Positions 23,228-45,643 of a stretch of 47,112 nucleotides of DNA are shown here, piece by piece. Source of the stretch: Escherichia phage e4/1c; sequence record NC_024210.1; one strand, given 5' to 3'. The position numbers were made by a program, and so were the translations under genes. The notes beneath the pieces are model-generated. The model searched no databases, was not told the DNA's origin, and saw only the letters and a list, made by a program, of their open reading frames with translations. Numbering within the stretch: position 1 is the stretch's first letter; the number at the start of each line of letters is the position of its first letter.

Positions 23228-23267
23228 TTTGTATTCCTTATTAAGTATGTTTCGTTTCGATGGAGTA

Positions 23268-23311
23268 ACTATAGCAAAGGCCGATGCGGGAGTCTTTAGC
23301 AAATCGTGCTA
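23268..23311 (-). promoter_or_regulatory. palindrome-type promoter unit for lipoprotein-RBP operon
   Basis: minus-strand TAGCACGATTTGCTA (23297-23311), 23 bp, TATAGT, then CCATCGAAACGA leader. Confidence 0.5.
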
Positions 23312-25077: not shown

Positions 25078-26046
25078 ATGAGCTTCAAGGTTTACACTAA
25101 CGATGAGTTAACCAATGAAGCCTACCATCAGGAGTCAGATCATGTGTCTGGTTCTGGTCTGGCTCACATTTTCTCAACTTGCCCAGCTGCACACAAGTTC
25201 TCTGAGCATGATGACGAGAGTAAGGCACTTAAGTTTGGTACGTTGGCCCACACGGTAATTCTTGAGAACTCTGCGTTCGACGCAACTTATTACCGGCAAC
25301 CAGCGCAGGAAGAGTTTGAAGACCTGATCACCAGCAAGACTGCATTAGCCGCAAGACTTAAGGCGATGGGAATTACAGGCACATCAGGTAAGGATTACCC
25401 TGAATTAATGGAGATGCTGACACTGACCGGTGAATCACTAAACGTATGGTGGGATATCCAGCGATCTAGCGAGGTTAAAGCTGAAGCCCGAGAGATTGTA
25501 TCAGCTAAGGACTTTGACACCGTACAGGCTATGAGAGAGGTTCTATGCGGCATTCCTGCTTACAATGCCATAGTTAACAGTAAAACCGCTCAGCGAGAGT
25601 TATCAATCTTCGGTGAGATTAATGAGTGCGGAGTTAAGGTAAGGCTGGACCATGTTGATGTTGTTGGTGATAAAGTTGTGATCACAGATTACAAGACAAC
25701 ATCAGACGCATCTCCTGAATGTTTTGGTAGGTTGGCGGCTAACTATGGCTACTTGCTTAAGATGAGTTTACAGCGCGATCTATTTGTGCGTGCGTTCAAT
25801 GAGAAGCGCAAGGTTGTTGTCCAGTTACTGGCTCAGGAGAAAAAGGCACCATACCTTCCAATGCTTTACACATTATCAGATGCGCACATTGCTTTAGGTC
25901 GCAGGCAGTATATGGAAGCATTGGCAACATACAAACAGTGCAAGAAGTTTAATGTCTGGCCCGGTTACAACGCAATTGAGGATTCTATGGAGTTGCAGGT
26001 TCCAGAGTTTTATATGAAGAAATACGAAAACAGCACGAATAGCTAA
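25078..26046 (+). CDS. PD-(D/E)xK-type exonuclease (recombination exonuclease)
   Basis: 322 aa; motif VRLDHVDVVGDKVVITDYKTT; directly upstream of Erf. Confidence 0.6.
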   Translation: MSFKVYTNDELTNEAYHQESDHVSGSGLAHIFSTCPAAHKFSEHDDESKALKFGTLAHTVILENSAFDATYYRQPAQEEFEDLITSKTALAARLKAMGITGTSGKDYPELMEMLTLTGESLNVWWDIQRSSEVKAEAREIVSAKDFDTVQAMREVLCGIPAYNAIVNSKTAQRELSIFGEINECGVKVRLDHVDVVGDKVVITDYKTTSDASPECFGRLAANYGYLLKMSLQRDLFVRAFNEKRKVVVQLLAQEKKAPYLPMLYTLSDAHIALGRRQYMEALATYKQCKKFNVWPGYNAIEDSMELQVPEFYMKKYENSTNS

Positions 26047-26073
26047 AACAACATTAAATCGGTGAGGTATATT
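26031..26073 (+). promoter_or_regulatory. degenerate palindrome-type promoter unit upstream of erf
   Basis: CAGCACGAATAGCTA (overlaps exonuclease C-terminus), 22 bp, TATATT, then CCTCATCGACAACGAGAGGA. Confidence 0.4.
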
Positions 26074-26790: not shown

Positions 26791-27294
26791 ATGGCTGGAT
26801 ATATAAAGTACGATGATTTCTCAAAGTACTTGCATTTAGATAATGATGGTGATTTGTGCTGGAGCGTAAGCGTAAAATCATCTAAAGTTGGTAAGATGAA
26901 AGGCTCACCTGACAATTACGGTTATAAGCATTTTCACCTATTTGGAAAGAGATGGAAATTTCATAGAGTAATATACTGCCTACATAACAAGTGCGACCTA
27001 GATAGCTCAATTGAGGTTGACCATATTGATTTAGATAAAAGCAATAACAAACCATCAAATTTAAGAATTGCATCAAGGCACGATAACCAACAGAATAGAG
27101 GTAAGAATAAAAACAACACTAGCGGATACAAGGGAGTTTGCTTTCATTCAAAAACTGGCTGCTACTTTGGTAGAGTCTTGTTTGATGGCAAGGTTTACTC
27201 AACCAAATACCACAAACTAGAAGTAGATGCACACAAAGAACTTTGCAAAATCAGATCTAAATTTAAATCAACTTATGTAAACAACGGAGAATAA
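26791..27294 (+). CDS. HNH-AP2 homing endonuclease (intact)
   Basis: 167 aa; HRVIYCLHNKCDLDSSIEVDHIDLDKSNNKPSNLR (HNH) followed by NTSGYKGVCFHSKTGCYFGRV (AP2-like). Confidence 0.8.
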   Translation: MAGYIKYDDFSKYLHLDNDGDLCWSVSVKSSKVGKMKGSPDNYGYKHFHLFGKRWKFHRVIYCLHNKCDLDSSIEVDHIDLDKSNNKPSNLRIASRHDNQQNRGKNKNNTSGYKGVCFHSKTGCYFGRVLFDGKVYSTKYHKLEVDAHKELCKIRSKFKSTYVNNGE

Positions 27295-30492: not shown

Positions 30493-30507
30493 TAGCACGA
30501 ATTGCTA
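30493..30507. promoter_or_regulatory. palindrome TAGCACGAATTGCTA in 5' region of tail fibre gene (atypical placement)
   Basis: perfect copy about 25 bp upstream of tail fibre start codon, downstream of a TACAAT -10-like hexamer on the minus strand. Confidence 0.4.
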
Positions 30508-30532
30508 AAGTGGATTGTAGCATCTTTCAGGC

Positions 30533-30557
30533 ATAAAAAAACCTCCCGAAGGAGGTT
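30533..30557 (-). terminator. rho-independent terminator after primase gene
   Basis: minus strand cctcc-ttcg-ggagg followed by T8. Confidence 0.7.
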
Positions 30558-31482
30558 AGCTATTCAATAAGTCACTCGCTTTGTATATTCGCTTCCTTAC
30601 ACCTGACTTGAATGAGTACTCATCATTAGGGATTACCACATCAATATTACGATCATCAGCAACGGCGAGTAAATCGAGAGAATGAAGAGTGCATGCAATA
30701 CGTAACTTGGAGTCTTTGAGCGCATAAGCAACCATTTCCATGTTGTAACTGGAGTAGCAAACAAGCACACAGCGGTTCCTAGTAGCGAGATGAACACGAT
30801 AGCCGTCAATGAAATTATCGACCAGATAAGCGTACTCATTATCCTTAAAGGAACCAATAACAGCCACAGACTGACGAGTGTAATCTTTTGCAGCATAACT
30901 AACATCCTCCTCTTCATTTATAAACATTACATTGCACATTTCTTCTGATATACCATCACTATAAGCCATGAAGCAAGGTATTGCATGGATTAATTCACCG
31001 GATTTTGTCTTACCAACATCAAATCCAAACTCGCTATAAATACCCTCGTATGTACTGAGCGGTGTTGATTCTACTCTTTCTGTCCTTTCCATTATTTCTA
31101 CGCATCTTTCGTGGTCAATCTGTGCGCCCATCTTGTATGGTGATGTTCTTGATGCTCTGATATTTGCGCTTTTTATTACTTCAACGGGAACCAGGTTTAG
31201 CCAGTCACCAAGAGCATTAATTGATTCACTAAAAGATTCACCTCTCAGCTTTTGAACCCACAAAATTCCATCTCCTGATCCGCATTGGTTGCAAATGATG
31301 CCACCATCACCAGGCTCACTAACCTTATCAGTCCAACGACTCCTGTCATTACCTCCACAATACAAGCAAGGTTGGTGTTTCTTTGTCTTGAAAAAATTGG
31401 GGTCAGCGCCGCAAATCTGAACCATTGCATCAGCCCACAAACCTTTCATCTTCTGCAAAACTTCTTTCTTGTCGTGATTCAT
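30556..31482 (-). CDS. putative DNA primase (zinc-binding plus TOPRIM-like)
   Basis: 308 aa; N-terminal Cys cluster PCLYCGGNDRSRW ... GGIICNQCG; adjacent to helicase region. Confidence 0.5.
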   Translation of the reverse strand: MNHDKKEVLQKMKGLWADAMVQICGADPNFFKTKKHQPCLYCGGNDRSRWTDKVSEPGDGGIICNQCGSGDGILWVQKLRGESFSESINALGDWLNLVPVEVIKSANIRASRTSPYKMGAQIDHERCVEIMERTERVESTPLSTYEGIYSEFGFDVGKTKSGELIHAIPCFMAYSDGISEEMCNVMFINEEEDVSYAAKDYTRQSVAVIGSFKDNEYAYLVDNFIDGYRVHLATRNRCVLVCYSSYNMEMVAYALKDSKLRIACTLHSLDLLAVADDRNIDVVIPNDEYSFKSGVRKRIYKASDLLNS

Positions 31483-31534
31483 TTTCTTTAATCCAATGAA
31501 AAAGGTTGCACCGATTATGGCACAACCTTAATTG

Positions 31535-32008
31535 TTACTCTTTAGCTTTTCGTGCTGCTTCGTTTGCTGCTTTAATTTTTCGCCATGAGCGACACTCTGG
31601 TTTGGTGGCTAATTCAGCATCAGTAACCACGCGTAGCATGTGTCGCTTTTTGCAACGAAGAGTCAGAGGCTTACCGTTGCCGTCAAACTGAAGGTCTGGC
31701 CGGCAGAATGTAGCCCTAAATCCTTCACCAGTTCGCTTATATCGATTATGTGCAAGTTGAGCGCCGCGGGCTGAAATCATTCCTCGAGTGCACCACTCTT
31801 CCACGGTCTGGCGAGTAACCTTTAACTGCTTAGCGAGATTTGCCTTACTGCCATAGAAGTCCAATACAATCTCAAGTCGAGCCCTTAGTCCAGCCCTTAC
31901 TTCATCCTTTAATACATAGTACCCTGAAGGTCGTTTGCGTGGCTTTTTATCTTCCTTTCGGATGGTTCCGTTATTGCCGTTAAGAGTACGTTTATCGACT
32001 TGATTCAT
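31535..32008 (-). CDS. HTH DNA-binding protein, candidate transcriptional regulator
   Basis: 157 aa from ATG 32008 (RBS GAGGTGA); HTH-like SKANLAKQLKVTRQTVEEW; basic; divergent from helicase gene. Confidence 0.5.
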   Translation of the reverse strand: MNQVDKRTLNGNNGTIRKEDKKPRKRPSGYYVLKDEVRAGLRARLEIVLDFYGSKANLAKQLKVTRQTVEEWCTRGMISARGAQLAHNRYKRTGEGFRATFCRPDLQFDGNGKPLTLRCKKRHMLRVVTDAELATKPECRSWRKIKAANEAARKAKE

Positions 32009-32022
32009 TTTTATCACCTCAA

Positions 32023-32065
32023 TAGCACTTTTTGTTAAACATTAGTTTCATTGGTTGTTATTATA
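32023..32065 (+). promoter_or_regulatory. palindrome-type promoter unit upstream of helicase
   Basis: TAGCACTTTTTGTTA 32023-32037, about 21 bp, TATTAT, then AATCGAACGAAC leader; palindrome lies 15 bp upstream of divergent HTH gene start. Confidence 0.5.
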
Positions 32066-32101
32066 ACGTCAATCGAACGAACATGAAAGGCATTTAAAAA
32101 C

Positions 32102-34045
32102 ATGACTATGCGCTTGAAAACAATACAGAAACAGATTGAAGAAATGGGTGAAGACAAGATCAAAGAGATTCAAACTAAATTCACCTCATATAATGGCATG
32201 ATTCCTTATAGCTATCAGTGTGTAATGTATAATGAGATTGCCAAGCGTATTGGTAAATATAAGCACCCGTTCATCGCAATGGCTTCAGTATCAGCTGGTA
32301 AAACTCTAGTTTTTGCCATGGTCGCTAAGCGCTGCTCTGAGATTGGTTTGCCAATGCTTCTACTTGCTCGTCAGGCTGAGCTTGTTAGTCAGAATGCTTC
32401 TGAGATTTCAGATTATGGTGTGCCTAACTCCGTTTACTGCTCAGGTCTTGGAATTAAGTCATCTTATTTTCCTGTAATTGTAGGCTCTGAGGGTACAGTT
32501 GTTGGTGGCCTTGATAAGGCGCTTGGTGACTTCTGTCCTGCTGTTGTGGCAATAGATGAGTGTCATCATCTGGATGATCAAGATATTGCAGAAGCAATAG
32601 ACAATAATGAGACATCACAGCAAGCTAGAGATAAAGGCCGGAGCCAGTACACGATAATTCTCCTCACGTTAATGGAGAGATGCCGCGCTAAGTATGGGCG
32701 TGAACTTAGGATATTTGGCCTGACTGGCTCTCCTTTCCGCGGAACAACACCAATTGTTGTGGAGAACCTTAAGGAGCTTGGGTTCTGGCGTGAAACGGCG
32801 ACTAATATTGATACCAACTATCTGGTTGAGTTCGGCTCTGTTGTACCCACAAATTTCGGGTCTACTGATGGTGTTGGCTATGATCTGTCTGAGTTTGACA
32901 CTTCAGCAGATGATGGTGTGCAGGACTTCACGAAATCTCAGCTAGAGGCAATGGAGAAGAAGATTCAGCAGTCAGGCACAATGACAGCAGAGATAATGAA
33001 GAAGGTATGGTTGGCAGCAAAAGATCGTAACGGCGTTCTTGTAACTTGCGCAGGCGAGCGACACTGCAAGGAGGCCGCAAGCTACCTTCCAGAGGGTGAG
33101 ACTTACTGCATAATTACTGGCAAAACTGGAGAGAAGCAGCGCAAGGAGCTACTGGATAAGTGCTTCTCTGGGGATATTAAATTTTGTTTTCAAGTTCAAG
33201 CTCTGACTACTGGTGTGTCAGTTCCACCATGGGATACTAGTGTAATTCTTCGCAAGATTGGTAGCCTCACGCTCCTGGTTCAGCTACTTGGTCGAGGAAT
33301 GCGTAAGCTTAAGAAGCTCCATGAAGATAAAGGAATGGTCAAGAATGACCACCTTGTATTGGATTTTGCTGGAACTATGGATTCAATGGCATCCCTTTAC
33401 TTCAACCCAATACTTGAACAGGCCCAGTATCAGCTACGCAAAAGTAATGGTAAAGAGATGAAGCAGTGCCCTGTTTGCGGCACTGAAAATAGCTTCTACG
33501 CTCGTCGCTGTATGCGTGTTGATGAGAACAATAAAAGGTGCGAATATTTCTGGGTTAGCCGCACATGTGAAGACCAAAAAGACCCGAGGACAGGAAAGGT
33601 TACCGTGAAAGGCTGTGGAGTTCAGAATGACGTTGCAGCTAAGATTTGTAGAGGTTGTGATTGCACCCTTCTAGATCCGAATCTTAAGTTAAGCGGAAAA
33701 CATTACAGAAAAAATGATTGGTTTGACGTTGTGGATTTCAAGGTTGGACTAACAAAGAACCAATCAGGAATCATCTACAACTACGTCCTTGATGATGGCA
33801 TGGGTGGGACATTCAAAGCTCATGAGGTTTTCTTTGTAGAGTCTGACCATCGAGTATGTAAAACGCTCTGGTTGAACAATGGAATTAAAGGTCACGTAGT
33901 CGACATGAACGCTAAGCGATATATGGCTGCATATCGCAATGCTCGCAAGATTATGGAGTATGCGCAGTACATCCATGCTCCTAAGAGGGTAACTCACCGC
34001 AAGACCGCTAAAGGTGGCGATAATATTGCTAATAAGGAGTTCTAA
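32102..34045 (+). CDS. superfamily II DNA helicase with C-terminal zinc ribbon
   Basis: 647 aa; Walker A SVSAGKTLVF, DECH box VVAIDECHHL, motif VI QLLGRGMRK, C-terminal CPVCG ... CRGCDC. Confidence 0.8.
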   Translation: MTMRLKTIQKQIEEMGEDKIKEIQTKFTSYNGMIPYSYQCVMYNEIAKRIGKYKHPFIAMASVSAGKTLVFAMVAKRCSEIGLPMLLLARQAELVSQNASEISDYGVPNSVYCSGLGIKSSYFPVIVGSEGTVVGGLDKALGDFCPAVVAIDECHHLDDQDIAEAIDNNETSQQARDKGRSQYTIILLTLMERCRAKYGRELRIFGLTGSPFRGTTPIVVENLKELGFWRETATNIDTNYLVEFGSVVPTNFGSTDGVGYDLSEFDTSADDGVQDFTKSQLEAMEKKIQQSGTMTAEIMKKVWLAAKDRNGVLVTCAGERHCKEAASYLPEGETYCIITGKTGEKQRKELLDKCFSGDIKFCFQVQALTTGVSVPPWDTSVILRKIGSLTLLVQLLGRGMRKLKKLHEDKGMVKNDHLVLDFAGTMDSMASLYFNPILEQAQYQLRKSNGKEMKQCPVCGTENSFYARRCMRVDENNKRCEYFWVSRTCEDQKDPRTGKVTVKGCGVQNDVAAKICRGCDCTLLDPNLKLSGKHYRKNDWFDVVDFKVGLTKNQSGIIYNYVLDDGMGGTFKAHEVFFVESDHRVCKTLWLNNGIKGHVVDMNAKRYMAAYRNARKIMEYAQYIHAPKRVTHRKTAKGGDNIANKEF

Positions 34046-34434
34046 TGGTTAAGGTTTTTCACGACAAAACAAGCACGGACAAGGCTAAAGAGGTTGTTCA
34101 CCAAATAAATTCAATAGCTTGGGTTCGCCACAACCATCCAGAGATATTTGCTTTTCACGTGAAGAATGAAGGTCTCAAGTCTATCGGCACAGCAATGAAG
34201 GACAAGCAGGAGGGAGTAATTAAGGGTGTATCAGATATTCTACTGATTGGACCAAATGGCTTTGCCGCAATAGAGCTTAAGCGAGCAATAAAATCAGATA
34301 GCAAGGTTTCAAAGGAGCAAAAGGAGTTCCTGGAAAAGGTATCAGAAACAGGAGGTTACGCGGCAATCTGTTATGGGTTTGAAATGTTTAAGTTGGCAAT
34401 TGCAGATTATCTATCAAATAGCACGAATTGCTAA
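34045..34434 (+). CDS. VRR-NUC domain nuclease
   Basis: 129 aa; GVSDILLIGPNGFAAIELKRA ... KEQKEF pattern typical of VRR-NUC PD-(D/E)xK nucleases. Confidence 0.6.
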   Translation: MVKVFHDKTSTDKAKEVVHQINSIAWVRHNHPEIFAFHVKNEGLKSIGTAMKDKQEGVIKGVSDILLIGPNGFAAIELKRAIKSDSKVSKEQKEFLEKVSETGGYAAICYGFEMFKLAIADYLSNSTNC

Positions 34435-34461
34435 AGAGATTTCGCAAGGATGCGATATAGT
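34419..34461 (+). promoter_or_regulatory. palindrome-type promoter unit
   Basis: TAGCACGAATTGCTA, 22 bp, TATAGT, then TTCATCGAAACGAAGAGAGAG leader. Confidence 0.5.
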
Positions 34462-34492
34462 TACTTCATCGAAACGAAGAGAGAGAAACAAA

Positions 34493-34687
34493 ATGACTAC
34501 TATCTACACTGAAAAGCTGTACAAGTCACGCAAAACTGGTTATGAATATGAATTAGCAATCACCCCTGAGGGTTATATTCTTGATGATGGAGACGGTTAC
34601 TCATTCGAAGTTAGCCCAACATACAAAGATGATTTAGAGACTGTTAAAAACGCATTCGGCGAAAAATTTGATGAGGTATCAGAATGA
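34493..34687 (+). CDS. hypothetical protein (64 aa)
   Basis: ATG 34493 downstream of conserved leader. Confidence 0.45.
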   Translation: MTTIYTEKLYKSRKTGYEYELAITPEGYILDDGDGYSFEVSPTYKDDLETVKNAFGEKFDEVSE

Positions 34688-35109: not shown

Positions 35110-35152
35110 TAGCACTTTTTGTTAAAACTAAAATACAAGGATGGATTATATT
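35110..35152 (+). promoter_or_regulatory. palindrome-type promoter unit
   Basis: TAGCACTTTTTGTTA, 22 bp, TATATT. Confidence 0.5.
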
Positions 35153-35544: not shown

Positions 35545-35798
35545 ATTTACCTGGTCTAGATTTTGATGAGAGTAAGTATCAGGTTGTGTTTTTTGGTGAG
35601 AAGCCTTATCGGAAGATTCCTTTCTCTGAGTGGATTCCTCCGGACTACCTCGATGTACTGGTGCAAATTGAGATTGGTAAGGCTGAGTTGATGTACTACT
35701 CACCTGGCTGCAATATGATGATGCCTAGTGAGTATTCTCCAGCAATTGCTGCGCTTGAAACTGAGTTTCTTGATTACTGGCTAAAAGAAGTTAAATAG
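35541..35798 (+). CDS. hypothetical protein (85 aa)
   Basis: ATGA overlap; stop TAG is first triplet of next palindrome. Confidence 0.45.
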   Translation: MNLPGLDFDESKYQVVFFGEKPYRKIPFSEWIPPDYLDVLVQIEIGKAELMYYSPGCNMMMPSEYSPAIAALETEFLDYWLKEVK

Positions 35799-35838
35799 CA
35801 CTTTTTGTTAAAACATATCGCCAGGGATGGCTTATAGT
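35796..35838 (+). promoter_or_regulatory. palindrome-type promoter unit
   Basis: TAGCACTTTTTGTTA, 22 bp, TATAGT, then TCATCGAAACGAGAGG. Confidence 0.5.
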
Positions 35839-35866
35839 GTGTTCATCGAAACGAGAGGCGGCTCAG

Positions 35867-37268: not shown

Positions 37269-37311
37269 TAGCACTAATTGCCAAAACACAAATCAAAAGA
37301 TGGGGTATATT
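37269..37311 (+). promoter_or_regulatory. palindrome-type promoter unit
   Basis: TAGCACTAATTGCCA, 22 bp, TATATT, then CCATCAAAACAAAACGAGAGGA. Confidence 0.5.
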
Positions 37312-41259: not shown

Positions 41260-41297
41260 TTTTTAGCCCTTTTAATGTATTTCGTTTCGATGAAGAG

Positions 41298-41341
41298 AAT
41301 ATATCAATTTTTGTTGTTAAGTTCTTTAGCAAAAAGTGCTA
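41298..41341 (-). promoter_or_regulatory. palindrome-type promoter unit for ATPase operon
   Basis: minus-strand TAGCACTTTTTGCTA, 23 bp, TATATT, TTCATCGAAACGA. Confidence 0.5.
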
Positions 41342-41495: not shown

Positions 41496-41539
41496 AATAT
41501 ACCCGCCGAAGCGGGTAGTGTCATTAGCAAAAAGTGCTA
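41496..41539 (-). promoter_or_regulatory. palindrome-type promoter unit
   Basis: minus-strand TAGCACTTTTTGCTA, 23 bp containing hairpin cccgc-ttcg-gcggg, TATATT. Confidence 0.45.
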
Positions 41540-42222: not shown

Positions 42223-42256
42223 CTTAGTGATTCCTTAGTTTCGTTTCGATGAGATG

Positions 42257-42299
42257 AATATACAGTAAAAGCCCCGAAGGGCTTTAGCGATTCGTGCTA
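42257..42299 (-). promoter_or_regulatory. palindrome-type promoter unit
   Basis: minus-strand TAGCACGAATCGCTA, 22 bp containing hairpin, TATATT, TCATCGAAACGAAAC. Confidence 0.5.
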
Positions 42300-42943: not shown

Positions 42944-42987
42944 AATATACCCAATCAGGACTGAATGTTCATTAGCAAAAAGTGCTA
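42944..42987 (-). promoter_or_regulatory. palindrome-type promoter unit (first of minus-strand block)
   Basis: minus-strand TAGCACTTTTTGCTA, 23 bp, TATATT. Confidence 0.5.
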
Positions 42988-43011
42988 TTCGTTCGATTTA
43001 TGGATTGTTGC

Positions 43012-43105
43012 GGATATTGCAATGATTAGATTCACCTTTGCGCACATAGCAATATTGCATCTATTGCAATGATTTTCTGTACTGTTGCGAAAATGGCAAT
43101 GATTG
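43012..43105. repeat. cluster of short palindromic iteron-like sites (ATTGCAATGATT family)
   Basis: TATTGCAATGATT at about 43015 and 43063, GCAATATTGC at about 43049, GGCAATGATT at about 43094. Confidence 0.6.
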
Positions 43106-43179
43106 ATGGATTGATGGAATGAAGGAGGACGCATCAACTGGTTGGTTGGTTTTCTCGCTCGCTCGGAGATAATCATTTG

Positions 43180-43330
43180 TATACGCGTAGTCCGCTGTCT
43201 ACCGATTGTCGACCGTATCCAGATTTACATTTGATACGCCTTGATACAATCCATATACATTAAAACATCCTTATATATAAAGGACTTAGACTATTATTAT
43301 TATTATATATAGTATTATGTATATATGGCG
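43180..43330. repeat. regulatory repeat region B (homologous to 23316-23470)
   Basis: TATACGCGTA plus 60-bp near-identical AT-rich segment shared with region A. Confidence 0.7.
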
Positions 43331-43381
43331 TATCCTTTGTACGCCACTATATAGGTGGGTTTGCTTAAATTTCTATTTTTA

Positions 43382-43398
43382 TTCCTACATTGTAGGAA
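43382..43398. promoter_or_regulatory. perfect 17-bp palindrome TTCCTACATTGTAGGAA with adjacent half-site
   Basis: perfect inverted repeat; half-site TTGTAGGAA repeated at about 43409. Confidence 0.5.
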
Positions 43399-43545
43399 TG
43401 GGACTACGTTGTAGGAAAATATAGGGTGTATCGCCAGAAATGCACTAATAATTTGGATACGGCGAGTACGCCATGACTACATCCAGCAATGAAGCGGCCT
43501 ACGGATGAGAAAATGTAATTATTTATCGAATACATAAAAAATACC

Positions 43546-43574
43546 TTGATATACACGTATCTACTTGCTATAGT
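43546..43574 (+). promoter_or_regulatory. sigma70-type early promoter (TTGATA, 17 bp, TATAGT)
   Basis: canonical spacing; followed by CCATCGAAACG leader and gene at 43614. Confidence 0.6.
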
Positions 43575-43613
43575 CACTCCATCGAAACGCGATAAAAAAC
43601 GAGAGGAATTAAA

Positions 43614-44156
43614 ATGAGCAAGTCAACACTTGGTGAAGTAATTCGATTCATGGCTAAAAAAGCACTCCAGTCAGAGAGCAAGGAGTGCAGAGTTCCAGTT
43701 CGTTCTATATTTAAAGAGGTGCGCGGAGAGGATTACCCAGAGGTTGACGTTAATGAGAAGGATGGATTAAAGAAAACAATTAAAAGTCGATCAATGACTG
43801 AGTTAAAAAACTCATACATTTACAATACAGTTTCACGCATGACTGAGCTGAGAGAAGCGAATGTTAGAGCTAGATATAAATTCATCTGGCTTGATGAAGA
43901 CAAAGAGGAGACAACCCCAGCTGCGTATGACGGTGACGGCGCAGATAAATACTTGGTAATCTATATTGAGAATGGCTCAGTCGAACCCAGGGCAAAGCAA
44001 AAGGAGAAGGCAAAGCAGGAGCAGGCCGCAATCGATAGGTTTAAGGCTCGACTTCTCAAGCTATCACCTAACGTGCTGGAGTTTGAAGGCGATGAGCTGA
44101 CTGGCGCAGTTAAGGCTATCCGCATGTATCAAGAGATGATCAAGGAGTTTAACTAA
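43614..44156 (+). CDS. hypothetical early protein (180 aa)
   Basis: RBS GAGAGGA; first gene after promoter. Confidence 0.5.
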   Translation: MSKSTLGEVIRFMAKKALQSESKECRVPVRSIFKEVRGEDYPEVDVNEKDGLKKTIKSRSMTELKNSYIYNTVSRMTELREANVRARYKFIWLDEDKEETTPAAYDGDGADKYLVIYIENGSVEPRAKQKEKAKQEQAAIDRFKARLLKLSPNVLEFEGDELTGAVKAIRMYQEMIKEFN

Positions 44157-44704
44157 TGTTTGATTTCGACGAAGATAAGTTAACTGATGACCAGGTGATG
44201 GAAGTCGCCAGGCAAGATAACCTGCCGCCACTTCGTGTGGCAATCAATGCTAATGGATACCGCCAATCATTCAAGTTCTGGCCGAGCGCCGAAGAGATGC
44301 TGTGCGTCAAGTTGAGCTACAAATACGGCGTCGTAGTGCATAAAATTAAGCACTTATGCGGCAATACAGGAATGCTTTACGTGAGCCAGCTATACCGGCA
44401 GATCAGAGAGGTCCAGCCATTCGTTGGTCGTGATGACATATTCAACGACCTTAGTAATATCATTCTGCCGTCACTCCAGGACGCCGGAATCACATGCCGG
44501 ATTGGCGATCAGGTGTTTGCGCATCCGTACCTGGTGGAAATGGATGAACGAGACGTGTACAGATGGTGCAGTCAGTACCTATCCGACGCACCAAGCTCAC
44601 ACTACGTGCGACCGCAGACAACAATCCATGGCTATGATGCCGATGAGGTGGAGAAGGCCATCCAGTTCTACCGGAAAGCGAAAGCTCTCCTGAATGGTGA
44701 ATAG
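44156..44704 (+). CDS. short paralog of P-loop NTPase gene (N- and C-terminal modules only, no ATPase core)
   Basis: MFDFDEDKLTDDQVMEVARQDNLPPLRVAINANGYRQS matches N-terminus of ORF 39457..41040; C-terminal LY..R.V.PF...LP.L...TC.IGD.V..P also shared. Confidence 0.6.
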   Translation: MFDFDEDKLTDDQVMEVARQDNLPPLRVAINANGYRQSFKFWPSAEEMLCVKLSYKYGVVVHKIKHLCGNTGMLYVSQLYRQIREVQPFVGRDDIFNDLSNIILPSLQDAGITCRIGDQVFAHPYLVEMDERDVYRWCSQYLSDAPSSHYVRPQTTIHGYDADEVEKAIQFYRKAKALLNGE

Positions 44705-44744
44705 CACGAATTGATAAACAAAAAACAGGGTATTCAGCTATGAT
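44702..44744 (+). promoter_or_regulatory. palindrome-type promoter unit
   Basis: TAGCACGAATTGATA starting on stop codon TAG, 22 bp, TATGAT, then CTATCAACCAAACGAGAGGA. Confidence 0.5.
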
Positions 44745-45283: not shown

Positions 45284-45603
45284 TGAGCAAATACGACAAA
45301 GAGATTATTGGCTTGGATGGAACCAAGACGACAGTTGATGTATATCGTGTTATCGCAGCATTCGGCGTAACCGACCCAGCGTTACAGCACGCCATCAAAA
45401 AGGTACTGTGCAGCGGCATTCGAACGCGACACAAGGGTTACACCACTGACATCAATGAGGCCATTGTGTCGCTTCAAAAGGCTGTGGAATTTCATGGGCA
45501 AAGAGGCGCGCATGTTCAGGAGATTATTGATAAGTATCGCGATGGCTCTAAGATTCAGAAGGTAGTAAGCAATAGGAATTACCTAGATAGCTGGAGCAAA
45601 TAG
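45283..45603 (+). CDS. hypothetical protein (106 aa)
   Basis: TAATG overlap; stop TAG is first triplet of next palindrome. Confidence 0.45.
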   Translation: MSKYDKEIIGLDGTKTTVDVYRVIAAFGVTDPALQHAIKKVLCSGIRTRHKGYTTDINEAIVSLQKAVEFHGQRGAHVQEIIDKYRDGSKIQKVVSNRNYLDSWSK

Positions 45604-45643
45604 CACGAATTGCTAAACATAAATCGCAAGGATGCGTTACTAT
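45601..45643 (+). promoter_or_regulatory. palindrome-type promoter unit
   Basis: TAGCACGAATTGCTA, 22 bp, TACTAT, then TTATCGAAATGAGACGAGGA. Confidence 0.5.

Follow-up and report, generated by a model that had tools for sequence, protein, structure and literature searches.

Escherichia phage e4/1c is a T1-like phage (Drexlerviridae, Rogunavirinae, Rogunavirus), and the subject here is a short repeated element that lies between its genes for a helicase and for a helix-turn-helix (HTH) protein. All coordinates refer to the window, which is the whole stretch of 47,112 nt that was analyzed (NC_024210.1), and strands are given as + or −. The helicase gene (ResIII/Helicase_C) occupies 32102–34045 (+). 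The HTH gene, which codes for a 157-aa Cro-type protein, occupies 31535–32008 (−), with its ATG at 32008 and its stop codon at 31535–31537. Direct reading of the sequence placed a Shine–Dalgarno motif, GAGGTG (32015–32020, −), 6 nt before this ATG; a GTG at 32017 falls inside the motif, and the true start is the ATG at 32008. The region 31460–34500 has about 86% DNA identity with AHP42, Rogue1, JK06, and other T1-like phages.

A directional repeat between the HTH and helicase genes

One nucleotide from the Shine–Dalgarno motif begins a 20-bp box, ATAGCACTTTTTGTTAAACA (32022–32041, + strand, towards the helicase gene), with the core GCACTTTTTGTTAAA at 32025–32039. A previous interpretation made from the letters of the window (the sequence-only reading) had described a palindrome at 32023–32037. 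The HTH gene was correctly recognized in that reading as a genuine 157-aa open reading frame (ORF) next to a copy of the repeat, and the details of the palindrome had to be revised. The sequence quoted for it, TAGCACGAATTGCTA, differs from the actual one, TAGCACTTTTTGTTA, at 4 of the 15 positions and was missed in a search allowing up to three mismatches. The dyad, which as such has no strand, is imperfect (TAGCA/TGTTA, one arm broken) and is contained within the 20-bp box. It is separated from the ATG by 14 nt, not 15, and does not overlap the start of the HTH gene as had been claimed: the start codon is clear of 32023–32037, which adjoins the Shine–Dalgarno motif.

The existence of a repeat family was borne out, since TAGCANNNNNTGCTA with at most one mismatch matched the window 17 times against 2.2 expected. 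Its palindromic nature was not. Conservation was examined in 63 sites from 8 genomes, picked by a symmetric rule plus a downstream −10, and the flanks of these sites were asymmetric. The conserved columns were A0 T1 A2 G3 C4 A5 C6 W8 W9 T10 T11 G12 Y13 T14 A15 A16 A17. Position 13 was C in 45 and T in 16 of the 63 sites, and its mirror position was G in 62. Mirror columns disagreed at 6/10 (C vs. T), 0/16 (A vs. A), and −1/17, with a similarity of 0.11–0.25 at these three pairs, so that the two-fold symmetric conservation of a palindromic dimer operator was absent from the sample. The box is therefore a one-directional element of about 19 bp with the consensus A-TAGCAC-nWW-TTG-Y-TAAA, and all copies with a −10 are oriented towards the next gene on their own strand. 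It was unchanged in T1, AHP42, Motto, Vc1, and three metagenomic relatives.

Direct repeats aaATAGCACnnnTTGnTAAAA were reported in 2024 in phage TLS and were said to occur also in T1, Rtp, and Rogue1; they run with transcription about 76 nt ahead of start codons, and their function was left open as a stoperator, an enhancer site, or a UP element (PMC11447400). The e4/1c box belongs to these TLS-type repeats of the Drexlerviridae, because it contains aaATAGCACnnnTTGnTAAAA, runs in the sense of transcription, and stands upstream of genes.

Promoter geometry and the match to the host marbox

When the copies were aligned towards their downstream genes, the complete unit read aaATAGCAC-nnn-TTGYTAAA, a spacer of about 20 nt, TATAnT, about 5 nt, CATCGAAACGA, a Shine–Dalgarno motif, and a start codon. 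Of 50 units from seven loci, 48 had a spacing of 19, 20, or 21 nt between box core and best −10. At the helicase gene it is 19 nt, to an extended −10, TGt TATTAT (32056–32064, +), from which transcription is predicted to start near 32071. A promoter scan placed a weak −35-like hexamer, TAAACA (32036–32041, +), 17 nt from this −10 and under the 3′ end of the box, and CAATCGAACGAA (32070–32081, +) is a variant of the transcript-start element CATCGAAACGA. Counted from the −10, the box would cover about −49 to −30 relative to the predicted start and overlap TAAACA. It lies about 39 bp upstream of that start, in agreement with the earlier proposal that this copy is part of the helicase promoter. 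Sigma-70 consensus promoters were not enriched in the early region (31 found, 35 expected), in accordance with the TLS study (PMC11447400).

The predicted geometry is that of class II promoters of the mar-sox-rob regulon. In these, the marbox is in forward orientation and overlaps the −35 hexamer at about −36 to −55, with a cluster near −41 and without a recognizable −35 (PMC6900184, PMC10268841). In Escherichia coli K-12 micF, which we measured directly on the RNA strand, GCACTGAATGTCAAA is followed by 20 nt, TAGAAT, 7 nt, and +1. The e4/1c box has the same sense as that of micF, with GCAC...AAA on the nontemplate strand towards the start.

The resemblance extends to the bases. The marbox consensus of Martin et al. 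in 1999 reportedly reads AYnGCACnnWnnRYYAAAYn; in its searched form, AYNGCACNNWNNRYYAAAY, with at most one mismatch, it matched the window 15 times (1.2 expected), and 32022–32040 had no mismatch. For a consensus derived from ChIP-seq, GCAHWWWWTGYYAAA (quoted in PMC6900184), there were 14 matches with at most one mismatch where 1.5 were expected, and again none of the positions of 32025–32039 deviated. We scanned the window with a position weight matrix (PWM) derived from 87 Salmonella sites at which ChIP-seq had shown MarA, SoxS, Rob, or RamA (PMC10268841, Table 1). At 14 bits or more there were 16 matches, where 1.0 were expected and 200 simulations never gave more than 5. At least 15.3 bits was reached by twelve phage sites, which would put them among the 15 best of the 87 genuine sites; the box at 32022–32041 scored 15.3 bits and would rank 15 of 87. 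All the conserved box positions from 3 to 17 are specified by the MarA consensus, and Martin's A-Y covers positions 0 and 1. By its sequence, then, the e4/1c box is a near-consensus and near-optimal marbox. We consider it somewhat probable, judging from match and spacing, that the helicase operon is driven by a class II-type promoter and that 32022–32041 is its upstream activator box.

The same promoter would be read in the other direction for the HTH gene. The −10 of this gene, TATAAT (32060–32065, −), is offset by 1 nt from that of the + strand and has a predicted start near 32053; a −35-like TTCATG (32082–32087, −; sequence and AHP42 annotation) with 3 of 6 matches stands beyond a 16-nt spacer. 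An equivalent minus-strand promoter is present in the annotation of AHP42, and at the equivalent intergenic site of T1 we read TTGAAT-17-TATAAT. The + TATTAT (32059–32064) and the − TATAAT (32065–32060) together form TATTATA, a TAnnnTA motif in which nucleotides 2 and 6 of the hexamers are base-paired. By our reading of the sequences this motif is kept in eight of the nine relatives examined, including T1, AHP42, Motto, L005, L006, and L007, and the −10 symmetry is weaker in Vc1. In E. coli, shared symmetric −10 elements of this kind place the two divergent starts 18 bp from each other (Warman et al., bioRxiv 10.1101/2020.01.31.928960).

The box also covers about +13 to +32 of the predicted HTH transcript and so lies in transcribed leader DNA. 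T1, AHP42, Motto, and three metagenomic relatives keep this arrangement of box and promoters. That one bound factor could act on both genes had been suggested before, and it holds: with a shared symmetric −10, and a box that is at once in the helicase promoter and in the HTH leader, the prediction that a single factor on 32022–32041 would affect both genes is well founded. From the shared −10 and the position of the box, occupancy should favour the helicase gene and hinder the HTH gene.

Candidate readers of the box

A near-consensus marbox in class II geometry makes a monomer of the host proteins MarA, SoxS, or Rob the most likely reader, and on this resemblance we think, with modest confidence, that a factor of this type reads the box. 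If the reader were a host factor conserved throughout the enterobacteria, the stability of the box amid drifting phage proteins would have an explanation. The affinity of Rob for the same site is much higher than that of MarA or SoxS, and RamA binds it in other Enterobacteriaceae (PMC10268841).

Several observations weigh against a host factor. T1-like phages grow well on laboratory E. coli in the absence of MarA or SoxS inducers, and phages usually encode their own activators of middle genes. Laboratory E. coli is low in MarA and SoxS, and Rob is largely in inactive clusters under standard growth (PMC10268841); with MarA and SoxS uninduced and Rob sequestered, a strict dependence would be surprising. 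Phages with Vibrio cholerae (Vc1, L004) and Pseudomonas aeruginosa (Motto, L003) as recorded hosts have identical boxes. This implies either a marbox-binding factor in those hosts, doubtful host records, or a reader encoded by the phage. The layout of the HTH and helicase genes in Vc1 and Motto is the same as in the coliphages. The HTH protein was the only protein of DNA-binding type found in common between e4/1c and T1, and its gene is alone in its module in having no box aimed at it. A2 (62 of 63 sites) and the A at −1 are conserved, yet they fall outside what the marbox consensus requires. Many boxes come with a partial −35 (TAAACA, 4/6) and some units with a TG-extended −10, so box promoters may fire without any factor. 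The role of the host factor is, moreover, proposed from sequence resemblance.

Searches for a phage-encoded reader favoured a host factor. With hand-entered MarA, SoxS, and Rob query sequences, phmmer against all six-frame ORFs of e4/1c gave only matches with E > 1, and a phage homologue was rejected as the reader on that result. Among 14 further ORFs, scans against Pfam and PHROG found no other annotated DNA-binding protein. The product of 44156–44704 has a winged-helix fold and was considered as a universal reader; it was rejected because T1 lacks a full-length homologue and because the protein resembles the N-terminus of a DUF3987 helicase.

The sequence-only reading had assigned the box to the HTH protein, as a candidate autoregulated master regulator. 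The protein belongs to PHROG 2856, "transcriptional regulator" (E 2e-85), and stays below the curated Pfam cut-offs for YdaS_toxin (22.4 bits vs. 30) and P22_Cro (20.4 vs. 30.2). Its AlphaFold model is confident (pLDDT 88.8) and has a lambda-repressor-like helical fold containing an HTH; as modelled, the protein is a single Cro-type HTH and not the double HTH of the AraC/MarA type. In an alignment of 114 homologues, the best-conserved parts were a disordered N-terminal arm (DKRTxNGNNGTxRGxDKKPRKRP), the RGMIS turn, and FCRPDLxFDxNGKP. The motif of the arm, the most conserved of these parts and predicted to be disordered, covers residues 5–29, in which D5, R7, N10–N13, R17, D20, and R24 are almost invariant. 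This suggests, from conservation, that the arm serves a partner (the DNA minor groove, RNA polymerase, or another host protein) rather than folding. In helix 3 (aa 66–75), positions 66, 70, 73, and 74 were the most variable of the folded domain, and position 66 had the highest entropy listed (3.57 bits). The helix reads TRQTVEEW in e4/1c, CCVRLTNAY in Vc1, NPLEYREM in P0113, THGAVRWW in P0108, and SNQTVNGW in P0100, and the boxes are the same. A hypervariable recognition helix facing an invariant box argues against reading by the HTH protein in the usual mode.

A dimer of the HTH protein on the TAGCA/TGCTA dyad could nevertheless activate the box promoters and repress its own gene. The all-alpha Cro proteins bind as dimers to dyad operators, the e4/1c protein has the Cro-type HTH fold, and the centres of the two half-sites are 10 bp apart. 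The HTH gene occurs in 823 phage records, and a homologue was found together with the boxes in every relative examined, so the phyletic pattern cannot separate the models. It also stands alone in the replication module in combining a sigma-70-type promoter with the lack of a box aimed at it, and the conserved box at about +13 to +32 of its own predicted transcript is a candidate site for self-control. The invariant arm and the C-terminal FCRPDLxFDxNGKP could both contact DNA. The box itself speaks against such a dimer, being asymmetric and strictly oriented, with the dyad broken in a quarter of the sites (T13 in 16 of 63) and the nondyad positions C6, T10, A16, and A17 conserved. The Vc1-like group lacks W72 of the variable helix 3 and has identical boxes, and a dimer would leave the coincidence of a near-optimal marbox with micF spacing unexplained. 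On these grounds (marbox match and class II geometry, a single HTH, a variable helix against identical boxes) the role of master regulator is not supported for this protein, and we regard its reading of the box as unlikely. The evidence contradicts such a reading weakly, and contact through the invariant arm would be compatible with it; we treat the protein as a conserved Cro-type protein that is probably not the box reader. Other sites could be its real targets. Between the divergent early gene blocks, the long noncoding stretch 43000–43420 holds ATTGCAATGATT-like repeats at 43017, 43063, and 43093, ATAGCAATATTGCAT, an AT-rich run (43270–43330), and a 17-bp perfect palindrome, TTCCTACATTGTAGGAA (43382–43398), with a second half-copy at 43404–43417. 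These are candidate origin, pac, or operator sites, possibly including targets of the HTH protein.

Somewhat less likely still is that no factor is involved, and that RNA polymerase reads the box directly as an UP-like or extended element, together with the TAAACA −35 and a strong −10. The partial −35, the TG-extended −10 of some units, and growth of T1-like phages without MarA or SoxS inducers would all be accommodated. UP-like elements were among the possibilities raised by the TLS authors (PMC11447400). The most conserved bases, however, are GCAC and TTG-Y-TAAA and not an A/T tract of the UP type, and the match to the marbox over 17 positions would be left without a reason.

A phage protein that has so far escaped recognition might read the box in the way that T4 MotA reads MotA boxes. 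Most early genes of the phage have no known function, phage-encoded activators of middle genes are a common solution, and the box is conserved in phages recorded on nonenteric hosts. Nevertheless, no candidate and no AraC-type protein was found in the searches described above, the winged-helix product of 44156–44704 has no full-length homologue in T1, although T1 has about 18 boxes, and the exact equivalence to a host marbox would have to be coincidence or mimicry. We give this explanation a low probability, below that of direct reading by the polymerase.

A roadblock ("stoperator") or an RNA hairpin, in place of a promoter part, is very improbable: stoperators are mentioned in the TLS paper (PMC11447400), one orphan copy (30495–30509) has no −10, and the dyad could make a 5-bp stem, but a spacing to the −10 that is fixed at 20 ± 1 nt in 48 of 50 units is what one expects of a promoter part, several copies cannot pair, and the hairpin reading was rejected because the fold of the HTH leader was not significant (z −1.56), with the dyad unpaired in the minimum free energy structure.

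Box copies, proposed mechanism, and related systems

Further copies of the box core are spread over the genome. On the + strand they lie at 2178–2192 (20 nt to TATTAT), 26033–26047 (20 nt to TATATT), 34421–34435 (20 nt to TATAGT), 35112–35126 (20 nt to TATATT), 35798–35812 (20 nt to TATAGT), 37271–37285 (20 nt to TATATT), 44704–44718 (20 nt to TATGAT), and 45603–45617 (20 nt to TACTAT). On the − strand there are copies at 23295–23309 (21 nt to TATAGT), 41325–41339 (21 nt to TATATT), and 42283–42297 (20 nt to TATATT), and the variant GCACTTTTTGCTAAT at 41523–41537 and 42971–42985. T1 has about 18 box units in the same gene arrangement. A scan of viral contigs for ATAGCACNNNTTGCTAAA was uninformative: multicopy matches were mostly on contigs of about 45–53 kb, and single matches elsewhere look random.

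A second core near the HTH gene, GCACGAAAAGCTAAA (31541–31555, −), points towards the primase gene (Zn_Ribbon_Prim; 30556–31482, −). It scored 14.4 bits, stands 21 nt from a CATAAT with TG, is kept in AHP42, and falls within the final codons of the HTH gene (its ...EAARKAKE tail). A terminator-like hairpin follows the 3′ end of the HTH gene (31502–31529, −), and the annotation of AHP42 has a terminator at the equivalent position. Because the primase −10 CATAAT (31514–31519) is in the loop of this hairpin, terminator and promoter overlap (31502–31555, −), a layout also seen in AHP42, L005, and L007. The orphan core without a −10 (30495–30509, +) is perfect and lies between the primase stop (30556) and the start of the tail fibre gene, about 24 nt upstream of the likely tail fibre ATG (~30468) and oppositely oriented. 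AHP42 lacks it, and its place beside the tail fibre start mirrors that of the helicase box adjoining the HTH start. The Erf-like and SSB genes are separated by an inserted, free-standing HNH endonuclease gene (26791–27294, +; HNH_3, E 1.7e-9).

The element CATCGAAACGA is found about 5 nt past the −10 of many units, with five exact copies among those at 23252–23262 (−), 34467–34477, 35844–35854, 41282–41292 (−), 42241–42251 (−), and 43580–43590. From this distance, transcripts would begin with AUCGAAACGA. One copy with a single mismatch follows a boxless TTGATA-17-TATAGT (43546–43574), the only near-consensus sigma-70 promoter. The element looks like a separate conserved module of the transcript start or leader.

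The mechanism that we propose would use about 14 promoter units to serve the nonstructural genes of e4/1c, each with a directional box over a poor −35, 20 ± 1 nt, a good −10, and often the transcript start CATCGAAACGA. A host monomer of the MarA/SoxS/Rob family, bound in forward orientation at about −40, would take the place of the −35 contact in recruiting the sigma-70 RNA polymerase, in the manner of E. coli micF. The HTH gene would be read from the opposite face of TATTATA, from a start about 18 bp away, and occupancy of the box would turn the shared promoter towards the helicase gene and away from the HTH gene. What the analysis establishes is the sequence match, orientation, spacing, and conservation of the box and how the HTH protein folds and varies; the transcription starts, the binder of the box, and the effect on either gene are inferred.

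Extended to the family, we give an even chance to the view that the Drexlerviridae run most of their early and middle expression from at least a dozen near-consensus class II marbox promoters. They would borrow the host MarA, SoxS, or Rob (or RamA) in place of a phage activator, with the box of the replication module switching a bidirectional helicase/Cro-like promoter and with development wired to host drug, oxidative, and bile stress. If this is true, a classic, very common coliphage group would be dependent on the regulators of intrinsic antibiotic tolerance, which would explain the near-absence of sigma-70 consensus promoters in T1-like genomes and give a function to the repeat left open in the 2024 TLS paper. 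It also predicts that salicylate, paraquat, bile salts, or mar mutations are linked with phage growth, which would matter for the combined use of phages and antibiotics. Annotators should not name the HTH gene as the regulator of the boxes without a binding test.

Compared with known all-alpha Cro proteins (Xfaso1 Cro, 3bd1; P22 Cro, 1rzs; N15 Cro, 2hin; YdaS, 8c7k), which have self-controlled divergent promoters and lack its invariant N-terminal arm and conserved C-terminal part, the e4/1c protein is set apart by its 157 aa, its subthreshold Pfam scores, and its occurrence in a virulent phage. The shared promoter has the same TAnnnTA and 2/6 pairing as the bidirectional promoters of Warman et al., and the predicted starts are likewise 18 bp apart. 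Unlike those promoters, one face in e4/1c carries a putative activator box, and direction could thus be switched by a factor.

The middle promoters of T4 that depend on MotA and AsiA likewise lack a −35 and carry, at constant spacing from the −10, a conserved box farther upstream. In T4 a phage protein reads this MotA box, the centre of which lies near −30. The e4/1c box has its centre near −40 and matches the site of a host factor; no MotA- or AsiA-like gene was found in e4/1c. The direct repeats of TLS and the e4/1c box are one element, oriented alike with respect to genes. The repeat is therefore already published, in a paper that, unlike the present analysis, makes no mention of the marbox, MarA, SoxS, Rob, or a fixed −10 spacing (PMC11447400). 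We found neither the repeat nor any T1-like phage linked to the marbox, MarA, SoxS, or Rob in the literature searched, an incomplete set and hence no proof of novelty.

The closest likeness is to the class II promoters of the mar-sox-rob regulon. The e4/1c units differ from that regulon in their number, with about 14–18 near-consensus copies per 47–49 kb of a virulent phage that serve most nonstructural genes, and they go beyond it in an additional conserved A at position 2 and in the transcript-start element; binding and activation are putative. The promoters micF, lpxC P2, lpxL P1, and rfaY P1 have the same asymmetric GCAC...TG-YY-AAA box with A-Y on its 5′ side. Forward orientation is common to class II marbox promoters and to e4/1c, an overlapped, poor −35 is predicted for e4/1c as well, and the distance from core to −10 in micF is the same 20 nt.

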